Virus record (IMG/VR): IMGVR_UViG_3300030376_006203
Location: 32,001-96,000 of that record
Strand: one strand, 5' to 3'
From: a virus
Taxonomy: Duplodnaviria; Caudoviricetes
DNA length: 64,000 nucleotides
Positions 18,646 to 47,507 of this stretch are shown piece by piece. Both the position numbers and the translations under genes were made by a program. Each line of letters begins with the position of its first letter. Position 1 is the first letter of the stretch. Under the pieces are notes generated by a model. That model was not told the origin of the DNA and made no database searches. It saw only the letters and a program-made list of their open reading frames with translations.

Positions 18646-18770
18646 TGCTAGATACCTTTTTTATGTATTTATCATAAGGACAAACTTATGTGAGCATTTA
18701 TGTCTCCATCATTGTGCCGTAAATATTAGTATGCAAACAAATATTTTGCTTAATAAACAAAGGAGTGCTA

Positions 18771-19484
18771 ATGGGTAAAAAAACGTCCAGAAAGCGCCAG
18801 AACAGGACAAACGTCCTACCAATCAAACGATACCTTCCAGAAAAACCACAAGATGTTAAGATAGTTCCTAGAAACGTGAATCAGGAGTCTTATCTTCTTA
18901 AGTTGCTCAACCCAAACAAAGACATTGTGTTTGGTGTAGGACCAGCAGGTACTGGAAAGACTTTGATTGCTGTTCAGGTTGCTATCAAAATGTTCAAAGA
19001 AAAACAAGTCAATAAGATAGTGGTTACACGTCCAGTCGTAAGTGTGGACGAAGATATAGGTTTCCTTCCAGGTAATTTAGAAGAAAAAATGGCTCCTTGG
19101 ACCATACCTATATTTGATGTATTCAAATTATATTTTACAACAGCAGATATACAAAATATGTTGTATGAAGGTGTAATTGAAATATCACCGTTGGCTTTTA
19201 TGCGAGGAAGGACTTTTCATAATTGTTACATAGTGGCAGATGAAATGCAGAACGCCTCTGCAAACCAAATGAAGATGTTATTAACGAGGATCGGAAGTCG
19301 AAGCAAACTAGCAGTAACTGGAGATCTCGCTCAGACAGATAGACCAAATGACAATGGCTTGTCTGACTTCATTGGGAAACTGAATCGGAGATCAAGTGAC
19401 TTGATAGGTTTAGTTAACTTTGGAAAAACTGACGTACAAAGGCACGAAGCAGTCAAAGAAGTATTAGATATTTACGGAGACTGA
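18771..19484 (+). CDS. phoH: PhoH-like ATPase
   Basis: GPAGTGKT, GFLPG, AFMRGRTF, DEMQN, TGDLAQTD; SD AGGAG. Confidence 0.95.
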   Translation: MGKKTSRKRQNRTNVLPIKRYLPEKPQDVKIVPRNVNQESYLLKLLNPNKDIVFGVGPAGTGKTLIAVQVAIKMFKEKQVNKIVVTRPVVSVDEDIGFLPGNLEEKMAPWTIPIFDVFKLYFTTADIQNMLYEGVIEISPLAFMRGRTFHNCYIVADEMQNASANQMKMLLTRIGSRSKLAVTGDLAQTDRPNDNGLSDFIGKLNRRSSDLIGLVNFGKTDVQRHEAVKEVLDIYGD

Positions 19485-30743: not shown

Positions 30744-33509
30744 TTACGAGACAATGGATCTATCACTGACTCTTCTCCAATTTGAACCATCATAGAATGC
30801 CGGTATAGCGCCGCTTGTTTCGTCAGTACAATACACCATACTTCCAGCGGATGCCACGAAAGTGTTTAATTCTGATACTGTTTTAGATAGTAATCTAAAT
30901 GGCACATCTGATTTTACTTCTCCTGCTCCACTTGCCGCATCTAATGTGATTGTTGTAGGTGAAGTGATTGAATAAGTTCCAACTAAATTGCTTGGAGGAG
31001 CGATACTACTTGCTTCAATGTTTGTTACTGATAAAGTATCTGTGCCACTGTTATATGTGAATGCTGAATCTCCACCAAATGCACCATTATTGTTAAACTG
31101 CACTTGAGTGTTTGCTCCGCCTGGAGTTCCGCCACCACCGCCACCACCTGTGTAACTGATAGTGATTAATCCATTATTAATAGTTGTTGATATATCTGTA
31201 CCACCTTGGAAAGTAAGTTCATCAACTGCCGAAGCCGCCATGTATGGAGTGCCTGAATCAGCATTAATAGTTTCGAATAAATTTTGATTTGTGGCTGGAT
31301 TTGTATTTGTTATTGTTAATATGTTTCCAGCAATTGCAGTTTGTATTCCAGATAAAGGATCACCATTGATTGTAAATGTATCAGTGGCACTTGATGCTGT
31401 GGCACTGCCTGTTTCTGCATCGATAGTTGAGAATAAATTTTGTGTTGAACCTGAAGAATTAATTGTAACAGATTTTCCTGTATTGTCTGTTGTTAATGTT
31501 GTGTTTGTGCCTGCCACAAAAGTTAATACACCATTTACTGAAGCAGTGGTTACATCTGTTTGTCCTGAAACTCTAACAGTGTTGAAAATATTTTGATCTA
31601 CATTTGGTGAAGTGTTTGTTACTGTGACAGATTTGCTTGTATTATTCATTCCAAATGATACACCGCCGCCACTTACAAAATTTAATGTTGTTGAATCACT
31701 GTTTGCTTGAATTGTTGTGTCGTCATCTGGCGAAGCCACTGAACTGAATAAGTTTTGATCAACATTTGGTGCTGAGTTTGTGATAGTTACTTGATCACCT
31801 GAAGCATCACCTGTGACAGTAATACCTGTGCCAGCCGCAAATGATAGAGTGTCTGTTGTTGTGTCTGCGGAAATTGTTACGCCACCTGCTAATACATTCT
31901 GGAAAATATTTTGATCAACATTTGGATTGCTGTTGGTGATTGTGATTAAATCATTTGAAGCAGTCATTGTGATACCATTTCCTGTTTGGAAATTTAATGT
32001 ATCAACATTTGAATTTGCTGTTGTAGAACCACCTGATGGTGTAATAGCAAAAGTTTTGTAAGCAAAGTTATCTGATGTGTTGAAATTGTTATTGCTACCT
32101 GTGTAAGCAATTTGTAATTCGCCAGCGACAACATTGGTTGAAATATCAGTGCCGCCAATTATTTTTAAAGTGTCTGTGACAGAAGATGCTGTGATTGTAT
32201 CATCTGAATCATCTGCTACTCTATAAAATATGTTTTGATCAACGTTCGGAGCATCATTTGTGATTGTAACTTGATCAACTGCTCCACCTGGACCTGAACC
32301 TGTGCCTGTTGCTGTAACACTTATTCCTGAACCACCGCCTATGTATAATACATCATTTGGATCGTCTGCTATCAGTTCCACATTGTTGCCAGGAGTACCT
32401 ATAGCAACTATTTCAAAATTGTTTGCTTCGCCACCAACGTTACCTGTGTAATTTATTTCTAATGTGCTACCTACTATGTTTGTAGAAATTGATGAACCAC
32501 CTACAATGTTGAAAGTGTCTGTTGTTGTCCCGGCTGTTTTACTTCCTGAGTCTGAACCAAAAGTTTGGAAAATATTTTGTTCTGTGACACTGCTGTCTAT
32601 TTGAATTGTGTCATTGCTGGCATTAGGTGTAATCACTATGCCTTGTCCTGCAACTAAAGTTAATGTATCACTTGTAGAATCTGCTACCACATCAGTAACG
32701 CCAACTTTTATAGTACCAAAAGCATTTGCCAATGTTTGTGTGTTATTAATTGTAAGTGAATTTTCGTCTGTGCGTGTAACAGAAATATTTGTTCCTGGTT
32801 GAATTTTAACATCATCTGTAGCACCTGCTGAACTCTGCAGTCTAATTACAATGTCACTGTCTCCATCCTGAGCACTTGAAATGCCGTAGGTTGTATCAGT
32901 GTCCGTACTTGTGAATGTTAATGAATTTGAATCTCTTGTGATACCTACATTTGTACCAGCAACCAAAGTGATATCTTGTATCGCATCTGTGCTGTCTCTT
33001 AATCTAATTTTTTTACTGTTTACATCATCGCCATCTGCACCTGTTAATGTGTAAGTGGTATTTCCATCTGCTACTCCACCGCCTCCACCTGAATGACTGA
33101 TAGTTAAAACATCCGTTCCGTTTTCTTCTGTAAGTGCTGTTGTAACATCACCTGAACCTTGAATTTTTAATGTGTTGCCTGGCAATATTGTTCTTGCCAC
33201 AGAATCATCTGCTGTGATGATTAATCCGCCACCACCTTGAATGGTAACATTTCCACCACCACCGCCACCTTGTCCCAATAAACTTTGTGTGTCTGTTAAT
33301 TCAGATATGTCTGCTGGTATTGTGGGTGCCCCTTGTAGTTCACTGTATTGAAGTGTGAATGGTTGACTGTTGATAGTGATGCTTTGAGTTTGAATTGCAT
33401 TTACACCAACTAGATTAGAATTAGTAAGATCAAGATTATCATTGATCGGTAATTCTTTTATCTTATTGCCGTCTGTTGTGTCTACTACTAGTGGTATTCT
33501 GTTTGCCAT
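30744..33509 (-). CDS. repeat-rich tail fibre protein
   Basis: About ten ~50-aa repeats (NVDQNIF/QNLF..ADS..DTL.F.GG.GI), poly-Gly hinges. Confidence 0.75.
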   Translation of the reverse strand: MANRIPLVVDTTDGNKIKELPINDNLDLTNSNLVGVNAIQTQSITINSQPFTLQYSELQGAPTIPADISELTDTQSLLGQGGGGGGNVTIQGGGGLIITADDSVARTILPGNTLKIQGSGDVTTALTEENGTDVLTISHSGGGGGVADGNTTYTLTGADGDDVNSKKIRLRDSTDAIQDITLVAGTNVGITRDSNSLTFTSTDTDTTYGISSAQDGDSDIVIRLQSSAGATDDVKIQPGTNISVTRTDENSLTINNTQTLANAFGTIKVGVTDVVADSTSDTLTLVAGQGIVITPNASNDTIQIDSSVTEQNIFQTFGSDSGSKTAGTTTDTFNIVGGSSISTNIVGSTLEINYTGNVGGEANNFEIVAIGTPGNNVELIADDPNDVLYIGGGSGISVTATGTGSGPGGAVDQVTITNDAPNVDQNIFYRVADDSDDTITASSVTDTLKIIGGTDISTNVVAGELQIAYTGSNNNFNTSDNFAYKTFAITPSGGSTTANSNVDTLNFQTGNGITMTASNDLITITNSNPNVDQNIFQNVLAGGVTISADTTTDTLSFAAGTGITVTGDASGDQVTITNSAPNVDQNLFSSVASPDDDTTIQANSDSTTLNFVSGGGVSFGMNNTSKSVTVTNTSPNVDQNIFNTVRVSGQTDVTTASVNGVLTFVAGTNTTLTTDNTGKSVTINSSGSTQNLFSTIDAETGSATASSATDTFTINGDPLSGIQTAIAGNILTITNTNPATNQNLFETINADSGTPYMAASAVDELTFQGGTDISTTINNGLITISYTGGGGGGGTPGGANTQVQFNNNGAFGGDSAFTYNSGTDTLSVTNIEASSIAPPSNLVGTYSITSPTTITLDAASGAGEVKSDVPFRLLSKTVSELNTFVASAGSMVYCTDETSGAIPAFYDGSNWRRVSDRSIVS
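31150..32800 (-). repeat. tandem degenerate ~150-nt coding repeats
   Basis: PNVDQN(I/L)F occurs 4 times plus QNLF/NAF/NNF variants. Confidence 0.7.
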
Positions 33510-43463: not shown

Positions 43464-44018
43464 TTAAGATTGTAGTCTTAAATTAATTGACTCCCAATTA
43501 ATTATCCTCATCATGCCCTCTATGTATTTTTTCTTGGCATCCTTGGCAGGAACATAATCCGAAAATGAATGTTCCCACATATCCACAGGCATTAAGATGT
43601 CTGTTTTGTATGATTGATTTGGTGTAGTTTTGATATTACCGTTTTTGGCAACATACACCCAACCAGAACCTTGTATGGTCATGGCTGATCTAATTAATTC
43701 TTTTTTGAAAGCATCAAATGTTTTGTGCTTGGATTCTATTAATGTTTTGATTTCGCCAGTTGGTTTATTTCCTGGACGAGGTGCTTGTAACTGTAACCAA
43801 AACATATTGTGAAGTTTTGCTCCACCGTAATTAAAATCTGCGTCACCTTCACCATCGTTGTATCTTCTGACATATGCTTTAGTCAATACATTGTAATGAT
43901 AATCTATGTTTGCTTCAGATAGCACCGGTGAAAGGTCTTTCATTTTGAAAGGTAGTTTAACCACTTCTAATTTTGATTCTCTATTTTTTTTGGATTCAGT
44001 TATGTGTTCTAGTTTCAT
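43464..44018 (-). CDS. sod: Fe/Mn superoxide dismutase
   Basis: YHY, LHNMFW, GSGW, DMWEH: all four metal ligands present. Confidence 0.9.
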   Translation of the reverse strand: MKLEHITESKKNRESKLEVVKLPFKMKDLSPVLSEANIDYHYNVLTKAYVRRYNDGEGDADFNYGGAKLHNMFWLQLQAPRPGNKPTGEIKTLIESKHKTFDAFKKELIRSAMTIQGSGWVYVAKNGNIKTTPNQSYKTDILMPVDMWEHSFSDYVPAKDAKKKYIEGMMRIINWESINLRLQS

Positions 44019-44032
44019 AACGATATTTATCG

Positions 44033-45079
44033 TTATACAATGCCTAGTTCCACAGCCTGATTGTGTAGTTGTTCTGCCGCTTGATTCTTCATCTTGGCTT
44101 CAACTTGTATATCTAGTTCTGGCAAGAAAGTCAGTGCCCATTCATTTACTTTTTTGTTGGGCAACATTTCTGAGTGTGCCCGTAATTTTTGTTTCTTACA
44201 ACCTTTGCTTAATAGTGTCTCCATGTCATGAAAATCATTGTGCATATCCTCGGCATTTGGATAAGCAGGAGTCAACCATTCATCTCTTGAATAAGAATAG
44301 TGCATGGTAGGTCTTACACCACGCCATGAATCTATTACTCTTTTAACTCTGTCGTCATTGGCTTGTAGATATTCTCCTGTACGCACCCAATGATGATGTA
44401 TGTCCAATACCAACGCACAATGTTTTTCTAATTCTAAAGAGGATTCCAATCCCCAACCCATCTCATCATTCTCAATAGTGATCAAGTTTCTTGCTTCTGG
44501 TGAAAGTCTTGGTAATGCTTTTATGATACCTGCAGGTCCTTGTCTACCTGAGATGTGTACATTTATCTTACAACCATCTTGGAAAGTTTTGCCAAACCCC
44601 ATCCAACGTGCCATGTTCACATGATATTCAAATTCGTCTATACTTCTGTCAACAATGTCTGGAGTTTCACTTGCCAACACTGTGAATTGTCCAGGGTGGA
44701 AACTTACTTTTACATCATGCTTTCTAGCAAGATCACCTGCCTCTGCGAAATGCTTTTCACAATATTTTATTATTTCAGGTTTGTCCCAATAGTATCTCCA
44801 GTCTTCTTGTGTTGCTACTGGCAATATGGGAGATGAAATTCTACACATACGTCTGCTCTTAGGCAGTGTGGAAACTTTCAAGATTAAATTTTTAATACCG
44901 TCTATGTTGTGTTTGAATACAAAATCTAATTTTGCTTCTGCTTCGTCTTTGTGTTCGTTAAGCCAACGCACAGTTGTTGAACGTGTGTTCATTGGTCTTT
45001 CAATTTCTTCTAATTGTTTCTTTTTAAGAGTTCTATCATGGTGGAACCATTGACAGCAGAATCCAATACGTCTAGTCAT
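44033..45079 (-). CDS. uvsE: UV-damage endonuclease UvsE/UVDE
   Basis: RISS, SFHPGQFTVL, IENDE, LDIHHH, AHS, VEAK. Confidence 0.92.
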   Translation of the reverse strand: MTRRIGFCCQWFHHDRTLKKKQLEEIERPMNTRSTTVRWLNEHKDEAEAKLDFVFKHNIDGIKNLILKVSTLPKSRRMCRISSPILPVATQEDWRYYWDKPEIIKYCEKHFAEAGDLARKHDVKVSFHPGQFTVLASETPDIVDRSIDEFEYHVNMARWMGFGKTFQDGCKINVHISGRQGPAGIIKALPRLSPEARNLITIENDEMGWGLESSLELEKHCALVLDIHHHWVRTGEYLQANDDRVKRVIDSWRGVRPTMHYSYSRDEWLTPAYPNAEDMHNDFHDMETLLSKGCKKQKLRAHSEMLPNKKVNEWALTFLPELDIQVEAKMKNQAAEQLHNQAVELGIV

Positions 45080-45084
45080 GTCTT

Positions 45085-45113
45085 ATTATAGCAAATATTT
45101 TGGTATGTGTCAA
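45085..45113 (-). promoter_or_regulatory. sigma70 promoter, leaderless start
   Basis: TTGACA-17-TATAAT, ATG 5 nt downstream. Confidence 0.8.
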
Positions 45114-45114
45114 A

Positions 45115-45690
45115 CTAAACATACATGGTATTGAATGAAATTGTTATTCTTTTATCTGTTTGATTTTGATTAGTATAGTGTTCTAACCAACTAGGGAACA
45201 AATATAACGCACCTTGTTCACAAGGAACTTCTACATTTTTAACATTATACTCTGTGTTTTGTACAAAAAATTCGTGCATTCTATACGGGTCAATAGGACT
45301 TCTAAAATTTAATCCAGCACTGTCTTTATCTGACTTAACGTAATATGCCGCACTTAAAATACTTACTTCGTGTCTGTGTAAATTTACACTTTGTCCTTTT
45401 TGTAGAACATTGAACCAACTCATACTGATTTTTACATTGTTGCCAAGTCCTACTTTTTCACAATACACATCAACTGCTTTTTGAAAATCTGCTTTTAAGT
45501 CTTTTAAGTCTTCGTGGTCTAGAATGTGTTTATCACTTTTCATATAACTGCTTTGAGCACCAGACACTAATTGATGTGGTGCTGTTTCCCAAGATTCAAT
45601 TAGTTCTAAAAGTTTATCATTGTCCTTGTGTTTTGAAAAATCAAATTTAAGAACAGGAGTTGGAAACATATTTGCTATGTTGTAATTCAT
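45115..45690 (-). CDS. 2OG-Fe(II) oxygenase-like protein
   Basis: FPTP, SWFN, HRH, LFPSWLEH, RITISFN. Confidence 0.85.
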   Translation of the reverse strand: MNYNIANMFPTPVLKFDFSKHKDNDKLLELIESWETAPHQLVSGAQSSYMKSDKHILDHEDLKDLKADFQKAVDVYCEKVGLGNNVKISMSWFNVLQKGQSVNLHRHEVSILSAAYYVKSDKDSAGLNFRSPIDPYRMHEFFVQNTEYNVKNVEVPCEQGALYLFPSWLEHYTNQNQTDKRITISFNTMYV

Positions 45691-46400
45691 TTCCAGTTCT
45701 CCTTACACCAAGGGTCTTGGCAAGTTTTAGGTTGTGGGTCTCCGTGAAATACAGCAATTGATGTTTGAGGGTGTATCTTTGGTACACCAGGAGATATAAA
45801 ATCTTTAACACCATCTTTGTTTCGTACCATAGGTGGTTTGCCTCTCATTTCCCATTTGTAACTCATTACCCATTCATCGGGCCAAAAATTAAAATCATTT
45901 TTCACTTGAGCATACAACCAATCTTGGTCTCCATGGAATCTACGCACAGGTGCCGCAGGATTTTTTATGAAGTCTCTGTAAATTTGTGGGTGTTGTCCTA
46001 TGTTCCATCTCACCACACTGCTGTTGAATCTATTCCATTTAGGATTATTACATCTATTAAAGTCTCTTATCACACAAAACTCATTTGGTTTGTATGTAAA
46101 AAGTCTGTCAATACTTCTAAAAACAATCACATCAAGATCCATATATAAAATTGTACCTTGCGGATCTTCCAAAGGTAAACTGGGATTGAATAATAAAGGT
46201 TTATGCCACCAACCATTGACACCATAACTTTGAGGTATTGGCATCACTCTCACTGTGCTGTTTAATCCTTTAGGGTCTTCTGTAAAACAAACAAATTCAA
46301 ATGGAAGTGTGCAGTATCTACGCACCATCTGTTCCAGTGTATTCACATACTCTGGACCATACTTGTTACCCCATTTTAAACAAACAATGTAATTGATCAT
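45687..46400 (-). CDS. glycosyltransferase (GT-A-like)
   Basis: CLKWGNKY, GWWHK, YMDLD (DxD), NSS, GDQDW, VFHGDP. Confidence 0.75.
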   Translation of the reverse strand: MINYIVCLKWGNKYGPEYVNTLEQMVRRYCTLPFEFVCFTEDPKGLNSTVRVMPIPQSYGVNGWWHKPLLFNPSLPLEDPQGTILYMDLDVIVFRSIDRLFTYKPNEFCVIRDFNRCNNPKWNRFNSSVVRWNIGQHPQIYRDFIKNPAAPVRRFHGDQDWLYAQVKNDFNFWPDEWVMSYKWEMRGKPPMVRNKDGVKDFISPGVPKIHPQTSIAVFHGDPQPKTCQDPWCKENWK

Positions 46401-46849
46401 TATCCTTCATAGATTGCTGAATTGGCTCCATGCTCAGCACATTCAACTTTCACTACATAACAACGATTGTCTGTTGCTTCACGTATAAGTTTGTCTGCAA
46501 AGTTAAAGGCGTGTTCCGCAAATTTTTCTGCTCCAACTCCATCAAACATTCTGATGTCTGCCAAGTCAAGTGCTTCAAGTTCTTTAAATTTTTCTAAATG
46601 TGGATCATTAACATCTAAACAAAGTTTGTGATCAAATGAATCTGTCAGCCATGCCTTAAGAGGTTTCAATCCTCCAAAGTCCACTGCCCAGTTTTTGTTG
46701 TCTAATTTATCACAACCAAATGTAAATGTAAATGCTAGACTGTATCCATGTAAAAAATGACAATGCGAATGATCTGCGTTAGGTTGTCTGAACACTGCTG
46801 ATAAGCCAATGTTGTGTCCATAATGTTTTGTACTATAATGTTTGCTCAT
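46400..46849 (-). CDS. queD: 6-carboxytetrahydropterin synthase QueD / PTPS family
   Basis: HCHFLHGYS, VDFGGLK, FDHK, GAEKFA, C-terminal E..NSA. Confidence 0.8.
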   Translation of the reverse strand: MSKHYSTKHYGHNIGLSAVFRQPNADHSHCHFLHGYSLAFTFTFGCDKLDNKNWAVDFGGLKPLKAWLTDSFDHKLCLDVNDPHLEKFKELEALDLADIRMFDGVGAEKFAEHAFNFADKLIREATDNRCYVVKVECAEHGANSAIYEG

Positions 46850-46910
46850 ATTTTTCTCCTGTTGTAACGGCGGAGTATTTAAAGAGGGTCGACGTTGTTA
46901 AAGTCCTCAT
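46850..46910 (-). ncRNA. candidate cis-regulatory RNA (preQ1-I-like) upstream of queD
   Basis: GAGG/CCUC stem, 17-nt loop, UUUAAAUA tail, AACG/CGUU pseudoknot option, CUCC anti-SD against GGAG. Confidence 0.45.
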
Positions 46911-46913
46911 TGT

Positions 46914-47507
46914 TTAAATTATAATGTTTTTTTCCAAGTCTGTCAATGGAATAATTTTTAAATTTGGTATTTTCTTCCATTCTTCTGGTATAGGAAAGTT
47001 TTCTTCAACATAATAATTAAATGTGTGTTTGTCATAATGTTCAAATATTTTTTGATTTTGATATATCCAATAACTAGGATCAACTTGCCTTTTTGAACTG
47101 ACATCGTAAGATTTGGTATTTTTGTACACATTGTTCACATATCCTTCTATGCCAAATAAATCAAATCCAACAATATGAATTAATTCTGTAGCAGAATATT
47201 TAACAGCCACCAATAAAGCAAATTGCCCAGTTCCCCAATGCCAAGGATCATCTTGTCTTAATTTCCCTACATAAGGCACATCAGGCACAGGAAACACACC
47301 AAAGTCTTCATTCCAATCATGTCTTGTGTACACACAACTCTGTTGAGTGTTTGAATGATTTATTGCTTCACGCACCATTCTTTTGTCGCAACACACTAAA
47401 TGGTCAACTTTTCTATCTCTAAAAATGGCGTTACAGCCGACAGTTGGCAGTTTGTATGAATCTATATCTAAATCTATTCGACTCTCACCATTTCCAATTA
47501 CTAACAT
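46914..47507 (-). CDS. putative sugar-transferase-like protein (DUF115/GT-like fold)
   Basis: LVIGNGESR, GCNA, HIVGFDL. Confidence 0.6.
   Translation of the reverse strand: MLVIGNGESRIDLDIDSYKLPTVGCNAIFRDRKVDHLVCCDKRMVREAINHSNTQQSCVYTRHDWNEDFGVFPVPDVPYVGKLRQDDPWHWGTGQFALLVAVKYSATELIHIVGFDLFGIEGYVNNVYKNTKSYDVSSKRQVDPSYWIYQNQKIFEHYDKHTFNYYVEENFPIPEEWKKIPNLKIIPLTDLEKNIII

Follow-up and report, generated by a model that had tools for sequence, protein, structure and literature searches.

A conserved H-type pseudoknot in the leader of a phage queD-like gene is a strong candidate for a new riboswitch class

To our knowledge, riboswitches are rare in phages, and the known ones are borrowed from bacteria. 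In phage T4, the pseudoknot of the gene 32 leader is an autoregulatory operator that nucleates the binding of gp32 itself. The glutamine riboswitch of marine T4-like phages (Melnitz, Mosig; PMC9004378) is shared with bacteria. The preQ1-I riboswitches, which are classified into types I to III, with examples in B. subtilis queC, T. tengcongensis and E. coli, build the ligand pocket from a G-C pair atop the P1 helix, a C located just before the 3' strand of P1, and an A-rich L3 (reviewed in PMC11625349).

We analyzed the leader of a queD-like gene in a 64,000-nt stretch of a Caudoviricetes genome (hereinafter the window; positions 32,001 to 96,000 of the IMG/VR record IMGVR_UViG_3300030376_006203), for which a variant preQ-type riboswitch had been predicted from the sequence alone.

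The queD leader and its genetic context

The leader spacer is 64 nt long (46850-46913; this and all other features described below are on the minus strand) and separates the stop codon of a 197-aa ORF from the AUG of an ORF of the PTPS/QueD family. The minus strand from 46913 to 46847 reads letter for letter as quoted in the original prediction, with the GAGG, CCUC, GGAG and AUG elements all in place. The upstream ORF (46914-47507), the stop codon of which (46916-46914) forms the upstream border of the spacer, finds a match in phrog_30607 and a weak one in a hypothetical protein from Pelagibacter phage HTVC008M, and has no Pfam family; a nucleotide search of the GenBank phages with the window region yielded no match. 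The gene downstream of the spacer, which is the regulated gene in our proposal, encodes 149 aa (46400-46849, start codon AUG at 46849-46847) and matches Pfam PF01242 (E 3e-14) and phrog_2389 (E 1e-37). The protein scores 35.6 bits against a QueD cut-off of 89.25 and, judging from these matches, is a divergent member of the PTPS/QueD superfamily.

A sigma-70-type (early) promoter with 12 of 12 consensus matches precedes the leader. Its -35 hexamer, TTGACA (46941-46946), lies inside the 3' end of the 197-aa ORF and is separated by a 17-nt spacer from the -10 hexamer, TATAAT (46918-46923); the promoter sits within the last 30 nt of that ORF. The aptamer starts about 7-9 nt past this perfect promoter, and the predicted transcript start should be at about 46911, 1-3 nt ahead of the aptamer. 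Among the related leaders described below, 35 of 119 have a promoter with 11-12 of 12 matches, the -10 hexamer of which ends 6-16 nt before P1.

The queD-like gene is followed, in the same direction, by a glycosyltransferase-like ORF (237 aa, phrog_1962; 45687-46400) and a 2OG-Fe(II) oxygenase (45115-45690). The start of the first overlaps the queD stop and the start of the second overlaps the stop of the first, by 1 nt and 4 nt, respectively, so that both could be translationally coupled to queD. The region 3' of queD (43464-46400) further encodes the UV-damage endonuclease UvdE and an Fe/Mn superoxide dismutase. The same set of neighbors, the glycosyltransferase-like ORF and the oxygenase included, is seen again in 37-42 related loci and points to UV and oxidative stress as a theme of the genes around the pterin/deazapurine gene.

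Covariation and parts of the pseudoknot

Folded singly, the window leader reaches a minimum free energy (MFE) of -9.1 kcal/mol, a value matched by 40 of 200 shuffles (z -0.72), so that the window taken alone proves nothing; the MFE structure consists of the GAGG/CCUC and CUCC/GGAG hairpins. A search of IMG/VR with the QueD-like protein gave 598 relatives, of which the best 80 were used, with 110 nt upstream listed for each. In most of these 80 loci, which were selected by QueD homology, the motif is located right after the promoter and ahead of the Shine-Dalgarno (SD) sequence, and about 175 distinct phage leaders share one H-type pseudoknot in which the P1 (5 bp) and P2 (4-7 bp) helices cross and both covary. 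Pair counts were taken on gap-free subsets of the leaders (A2 and A4), with the pseudoknot written in two bracket types and the rest scripted, because MAFFT misaligned the 5' strand of P1 in leaders of unequal length and cmalign scattered L1.

Standard pairs fill 94.5% of the cells in an alignment of 11 sequences and 94.2% in one of 38 distinct sequences, as opposed to 34-59% and 36-57%, respectively, in controls in which the 3' partners were slid by 1-3 columns. Both sides have changed in 7 of the 10 pairs (11 sequences) and in 8 of the 10 (38 sequences). The covariation score is 0.75 for the smaller alignment and 0.62 for the larger one, with at most 0.14 for the slid partners in both, and none of the 500 shuffles of either alignment attained the observed score. 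RNAalifold recovers P1 unguided, and the relatives carry P1 variants such as AGCGG/CCGCU, UGCGG/CCGCA, AGUGG/CCACU, ACCGG/CCGGU and AGAGG/CCUCU. The P2 helix has 48 different versions among 122 distinct leaders (for example, AACG/CGUU, GGCAU/AUGCC, GACGC/GUGUC, GACUU/AAGUC and UGAUAC/GUGUCA); its mean contiguous length is 4.34 bp, compared to 3.50 +/- 0.08 when loops and tails are permuted. Among the P2 pairs, 29 of 213 are G-U; because these would be A-C on the opposite strand, the structure belongs to the sense RNA. On this comparative evidence, the queD-leader element is a real, conserved and covarying H-type pseudoknot. Thus, the GAGG/CCUC and AACG/CGUU pairings proposed in the original prediction are the window versions of the P1 and P2 helices that covary across many phage contigs, and the covariation in queD leaders of related phages that was named there as a check is borne out.

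A fold no better than those of shuffled sequences, together with an AUG at 46910-46908, would fit a GC-rich spacer present by chance, a DNA-level operator or a short leader peptide, all devoid of RNA structure. These readings are contradicted by the covariation, which includes many G-U pairs and applies to the sense strand only, and chance is further contradicted by the hundreds of instances of the motif. Against a peptide, L1 changes in length by steps other than multiples of three, and relatives do not conserve the upstream AUG. We regard this group of explanations as practically negligible.

In the window, the 5' strand of P1 is GAGG (46905-46908) and the 3' strand is CCUC (46884-46887), with pairs that covary among relatives (CG/UA/AU, AU/UA). 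U46909 is opposite U46883, so that P1 has 4 bp in the window and 5 bp in most relatives. The loop between the two strands, ACUUUAACAACGUCGAC, consists of L1 (ACUUUAAC, 46897-46904), the 5' strand of P2 (AACG, 46893-46896) and L2 (UCGAC, 46888-46892). L1 has two invariant bases, C46903 and U46902 (alignment positions C7 and U8), and otherwise varies in length; all 5 P2 pairs have changed on both sides across the relatives; in L2, the invariant bases are U46892, C46891 and C46888, the last of which occupies the place of the preQ1-I specificity cytosine and, by analogy, might play the same role (PMC11625349). The segment between CCUC and CGUU, UUUAAAUACUCCGC, comprises the A-rich L3 (UUUAAAUAC, 46875-46883), with invariant A46880, A46878 and A46876 (A28, A30 and A32 of the alignment), and an anchor, UCCGC (46870-46874), which is UCUGC in most relatives and in which U46874, C46873, G46871 and C46870 are invariant. 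The 3' strand of P2, CGUU (46866-46869), takes part in the P2 covariation and is followed by ACAACA, the SD sequence GGAG (46856-46859), and AAAAAU between the SD and the AUG. The motif consensus accordingly has an L1 that starts with N-C-U, a variable 5' strand of P2, L2 of the form UC(A/G)NC, an A-rich L3 ending in A-Y-U-C-Y-G-C, and a 3' strand of P2 complementary to the loop. Together with G46906, G46905, C46887 and C46886 of P1, the family has 16 invariant positions, all outside the helices or capping them, and the window has all 16.

Phage distribution, metabolic setting and predicted switch

A covariance model, R1, built from 11 leaders finds a single copy of the motif in the window (46862-46909, 25 bits) and likewise a single copy in each genome when extended to the entire 148-kb source record of the window and to five further phage records (220-357 kb, four of these estimated to be complete). 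A second R1 match in one of these genomes (G004, 18 bits) was dismissed as chance, and the other weak matches in the window and its genome (E 0.03-1) arise from partial similarity to the AACUCUGC word. The model scores variants with a short L3 (AAGG...CUAAU) poorly, and those were recognized by eye and by script. The motif is almost always found ahead of a QueD-like gene. In two pattern scans of IMG/VR, the second of these with UCCGC, the inner P1 pair was left unconstrained (N-N), and the two bases are complementary in 80 of 80 and 76 of 80 of the matches listed; a QueD homologue comes next in 80 of 80 and 73 of 80, respectively. Seven of the 80 UCCGC matches are GC-rich chance matches with no queD downstream.

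A stricter pattern was run against prokaryotes, with one genome per species (185,579 species), and produced 12 matches, of which 5 are again GC-rich chance matches with no queD downstream and 7 are real, all on short contigs of metagenome-assembled genomes (MAGs). Five of the seven contigs are syntenic with the window phage. These syntenic contigs are binned in MAGs named Rickettsiales MED657, Bacteroidetes YR_bin-4742 and Crocinitomicaceae, and the QueD of Rickettsiales MED657 is 85-87% identical to that of the window; the other two contigs come from MAGs named Nitrospira and Chitinophagales (loci L219-L227). The placement of these contigs in MAGs likely reflects binning contamination or hints at the hosts. 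The motif thus has a phage-only distribution, with no bacterial counterpart in the species scanned, and is widespread among T4-like and jumbo phages of marine and lake origin.

One contig (L023) carries two identical copies of the motif (2134-2178 and 2931-2975). The first copy precedes a 236-aa methyltransferase-like ORF, adjoining a B12-binding radical-SAM gene, and no other gene apart from queD was seen to follow the motif; we considered this ORF as a possible homologue of the 237-aa ORF downstream of queD in the window and found no homology. Three close relatives (L003-L005; L003:2880-3020) have the same promoter, a 94-98% identical QueD protein and a TTG start, and lack the aptamer. This is a natural presence/absence polymorphism, and hence the element is a discrete, dispensable module.

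FolE is encoded in all five related genomes (four estimated to be complete), and QueC and TGT/DpdA are absent from all five, so that preQ1 itself, one of the ligands suggested in the original prediction, is unlikely. The possibility that these genomes are devoid of 7-deazaguanine enzymes was ruled out by a gene for a divergent radical-SAM protein of about 300 aa that adjoins folE; its top five matches in NCBIfam are to QueE families without exception, with scores far under the cut-off. Upstream of the window in the same phage record, folE overlaps a 304-aa QueE-like radical-SAM gene, and a xanthine/HGPRT-like phosphoribosyltransferase (PRTase) gene is located 2.6 kb from this pair (G000:C1:14541-16122 and 18702-19208; loci L228 and L231). 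A xanthine/hypoxanthine-type PRTase is found nearby in 3 of the 5 genomes, and in G004, the gene order is folE, PRTase, motif, queD, QueE-like. In tubercidin synthesis, TubE ribosylates CDG (PMC6112128). The combination of FolE, QueD, QueE and a purine PRTase without QueC resembles the early part of that route (CDG + PRPP), which leads us to infer a CDG-derived nucleotide or a pterin as the product of the module.

The aptamer also appears to be wired to the ribosome-binding site. For 84 of 120 leaders, the longest helix between the 3' part of the aptamer and the ribosome-binding region joins the 3' strand of P2 with the start codon AUG and the codon after it (for example, GUCAUUG/CAAUGGC, AAGUCAUC/GAUGACUU and CCCAUA/UAUGGG); for 12 of the 120, the window among them, it joins the UCYGC anchor with the SD. 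The mean sequestering helix is 6.12 bp long, compared to 5.48 +/- 0.07 in permuted and 5.22 +/- 0.09 in shuffled controls, a modest excess of about 0.6 bp per leader over the permuted ones. In the window, the anti-SD element CUCC (46875-46872), which consists of C46875 and anchor bases, pairs with GGAG in the MFE structure, as had been proposed originally. The window is a member of the UCCGC subclass, and there the anti-SD helix covaries (ACUCC:GGAGU, CCUC:GAGG, UCUCUUU:AAAGGAG). In the free leader, the window SD has a predicted probability of 0.25 of being unpaired; barring the aptamer nucleotides from pairing raises this to 0.98, a gain that is partly built into the calculation. The CUCC:GGAG helix is only 4 bp long, and the second codon of the window gene, AGC, breaks the UACUC:GAGUA pairing of sister leaders; the window platform is therefore the weakest of the family. 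In 32 of 122 leaders, an extended -10-like element, TGnTAnAAT, is located between the aptamer and the SD; this subclass has a CCUAUGCUAUAAU...CAUAGG hairpin (for example, L023:2975-3000, L100 and L133), and the element could be a second promoter yielding aptamer-less transcripts.

In silico, then, the leaders contain a structure mutually exclusive with the aptamer: P2 and the anchor are unable to be in the knot and on the ribosome-binding site together, so that the folded, ligand-stabilized knot should release the site, which would amount to an ON switch. We propose that the first 45 nt or so of the early, sigma-70-driven queD-like mRNA form an H-type pseudoknot aptamer, composed of P1 (GAGG/CCUC), P2 (AACG/CGUU), the invariant unpaired bases of L1, L2 and L3, and UCYGC, with a putative ligand that would most likely be a small guanine-like heterocycle, a pterin or a 7-deazapurine, of the GTP -> H2NTP -> CPH4 -> CDG branch. 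In the free RNA, the 3' part of the aptamer would lie on the ribosome-binding site, via 46875-46872 and 46859-46856 in the window, and via the 3' strand of P2 on the AUG and codon 2 in most relatives. The ligand-stabilized knot would occupy the anti-ribosome-binding-site bases and open the site, such that queD would be translated, and the two overlapping downstream genes may follow by coupling. An ON switch on a biosynthetic gene implies that the ligand must be a precursor or a signal, a type of control that is less common than end-product repression, which counts against this reading. Rather than preQ1, the ligand would be a precursor or pool signal: guanine or GTP, dihydroneopterin triphosphate, or some related heterocycle. 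Taken as a whole, with presumed ligand binding, ligand identity, switching direction and transcript start, this explanation seems to us somewhat better than an even bet. A more specific version, in which a phage-only riboswitch class senses an intermediate of the path from GTP via dihydroneopterin triphosphate and CPH4 to 7-carboxy-7-deazaguanine, or the guanine pool, and turns QueD on, gating a FolE/QueD-like/QueE-like/PRTase route without QueC and DpdA that would lead to 7-deazapurine nucleotides by a tubercidin-like logic and not by base exchange in DNA, is offered tentatively, as possible rather than probable.

The leader could also function without a small molecule, as an operator bound by a phage protein, a stabilizer of the 5' end or a temperature-sensitive fold, with the pairing at the ribosome-binding site merely tuning basal translation. 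T4-like phages use leader pseudoknots and RNA-binding repressors, the element occupies the extreme 5' end of a presumed early mRNA, and some relatives manage without it, all of which would be compatible with such a role. However, the combination of 16 invariant loop bases with freely variable helices is the pattern of a small-molecule pocket and not that of a stabilizing hairpin, the motif is strictly linked to one metabolic gene and not to a gene for a nucleic-acid-binding protein, and the 3' part of the aptamer has become complementary to the ribosome-binding site by several independent solutions. A ligand-independent or protein-dependent leader therefore appears rather unlikely to us.

Comparison with preQ1-I and other leader RNAs

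The queD-leader motif resembles preQ1-I in its architecture. Both are small H-type pseudoknots with the order P1 5' - L1 - P2 5' - L2 - P1 3' - L3 - P2 3'. As in preQ1-I, a G-C pair tops P1 (G46905-C46887, invariant in all aligned leaders), an invariant C (C46888, preceded by A, U or C) lies directly before the 3' strand of P1, and L3 is A-rich; furthermore, the motif is a leader element, the gene behind it belongs to the GTP-to-7-deazaguanine route, and control is predicted here to act at the level of translation. The strand order shared with preQ1-I and the three landmarks suggest that the ligand has a guanine-like face.

With these features, a queD-like gene downstream, and FolE and a QueE-like enzyme encoded in the same genomes, the leader might be taken for a divergent true member of preQ1-I in which binding of preQ1 or preQ0 leads to repression of queD, as it does in bacteria. 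The family models give no indication of such membership. At the Rfam 15 gathering scores, no family is detected in the window or in 20 related loci, and at E<=10, the site in the window and in the best-scoring relative shows chance-level matches only, with no preQ1 class among these. The preQ1-I model itself (RF00522, gathering score 39 bits) does not match the site even at E<=10, either in the window or in the best relatives, and when run alone over the whole phage record, finds only chance sites elsewhere. Altogether, four testable defining features of true preQ1-I membership are lacking. Whereas preQ1-I has a conserved U or UU after the 5' strand of P1, L1 of the motif is longer and starts with N-C-U. 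The RF00522 consensus tail is AUAAAAAACUAAGG, and preQ1-I aptamers end in AAAAAACUA, the end of which forms P2; instead, the motif has an A-rich L3 of 9 nt, the invariant UCYGC and then a variable P2 strand. In preQ1-I, the SD is in the 3' strand of P2 or abuts it, yielding an OFF switch; in the motif, the SD is located 6-35 nt downstream, and the 3' part of the aptamer holds the complement of the SD or the AUG rather than the SD itself, hence the predicted ON logic. Finally, the motif is seen in phages only, in genomes that, lacking QueC and TGT/DpdA, would make neither preQ0 nor preQ1. We consider true preQ1-I membership very unlikely. Of the variant preQ-type riboswitch originally predicted at queD, the conserved pseudoknot of preQ1-I topology, the invariant C and the A-rich L3 stand, and the pterin intermediate suggested there is a possible ligand, in contrast to the assignment to the preQ1 family, which fails on the UCYGC insert, the anti-ribosome-binding-site wiring with its implied ON logic, and the lack of a match to RF00522 or any other Rfam model.

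In the full-text literature, we found no description of a queD, PTPS or pterin riboswitch in phages. The comparative data make the motif a strong candidate for a new riboswitch class that combines a preQ1-I-like fold with ON logic. Should it bind a metabolite, it would represent a new aptamer class on the smallest known riboswitch fold, with the opposite switching logic, and would imply that phages evolve their own metabolite sensors. The ligand would then reveal the product of the orphan FolE/QueD/QueE-like module, a matter of interest for phage DNA hypermodification and for 7-deazapurine nucleotide chemistry. Given its 45-nt aptamer and simple switch, the element might also find use in engineering as a compact ON part.

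Two other leader RNAs of T4-like phages invite comparison. Like the glutamine riboswitch, the queD-leader motif is a phage-encoded candidate found in marine T4-like myophages of streamlined heterotrophs, but the fold, the gene and the putative ligand are all different, and, unlike the glutamine riboswitch, the motif has no bacterial counterpart. The gene 32 mRNA of T4 likewise begins with an H-type pseudoknot, which influences translation; here, however, the gene encodes a metabolic enzyme, and the conservation is concentrated in the loops.
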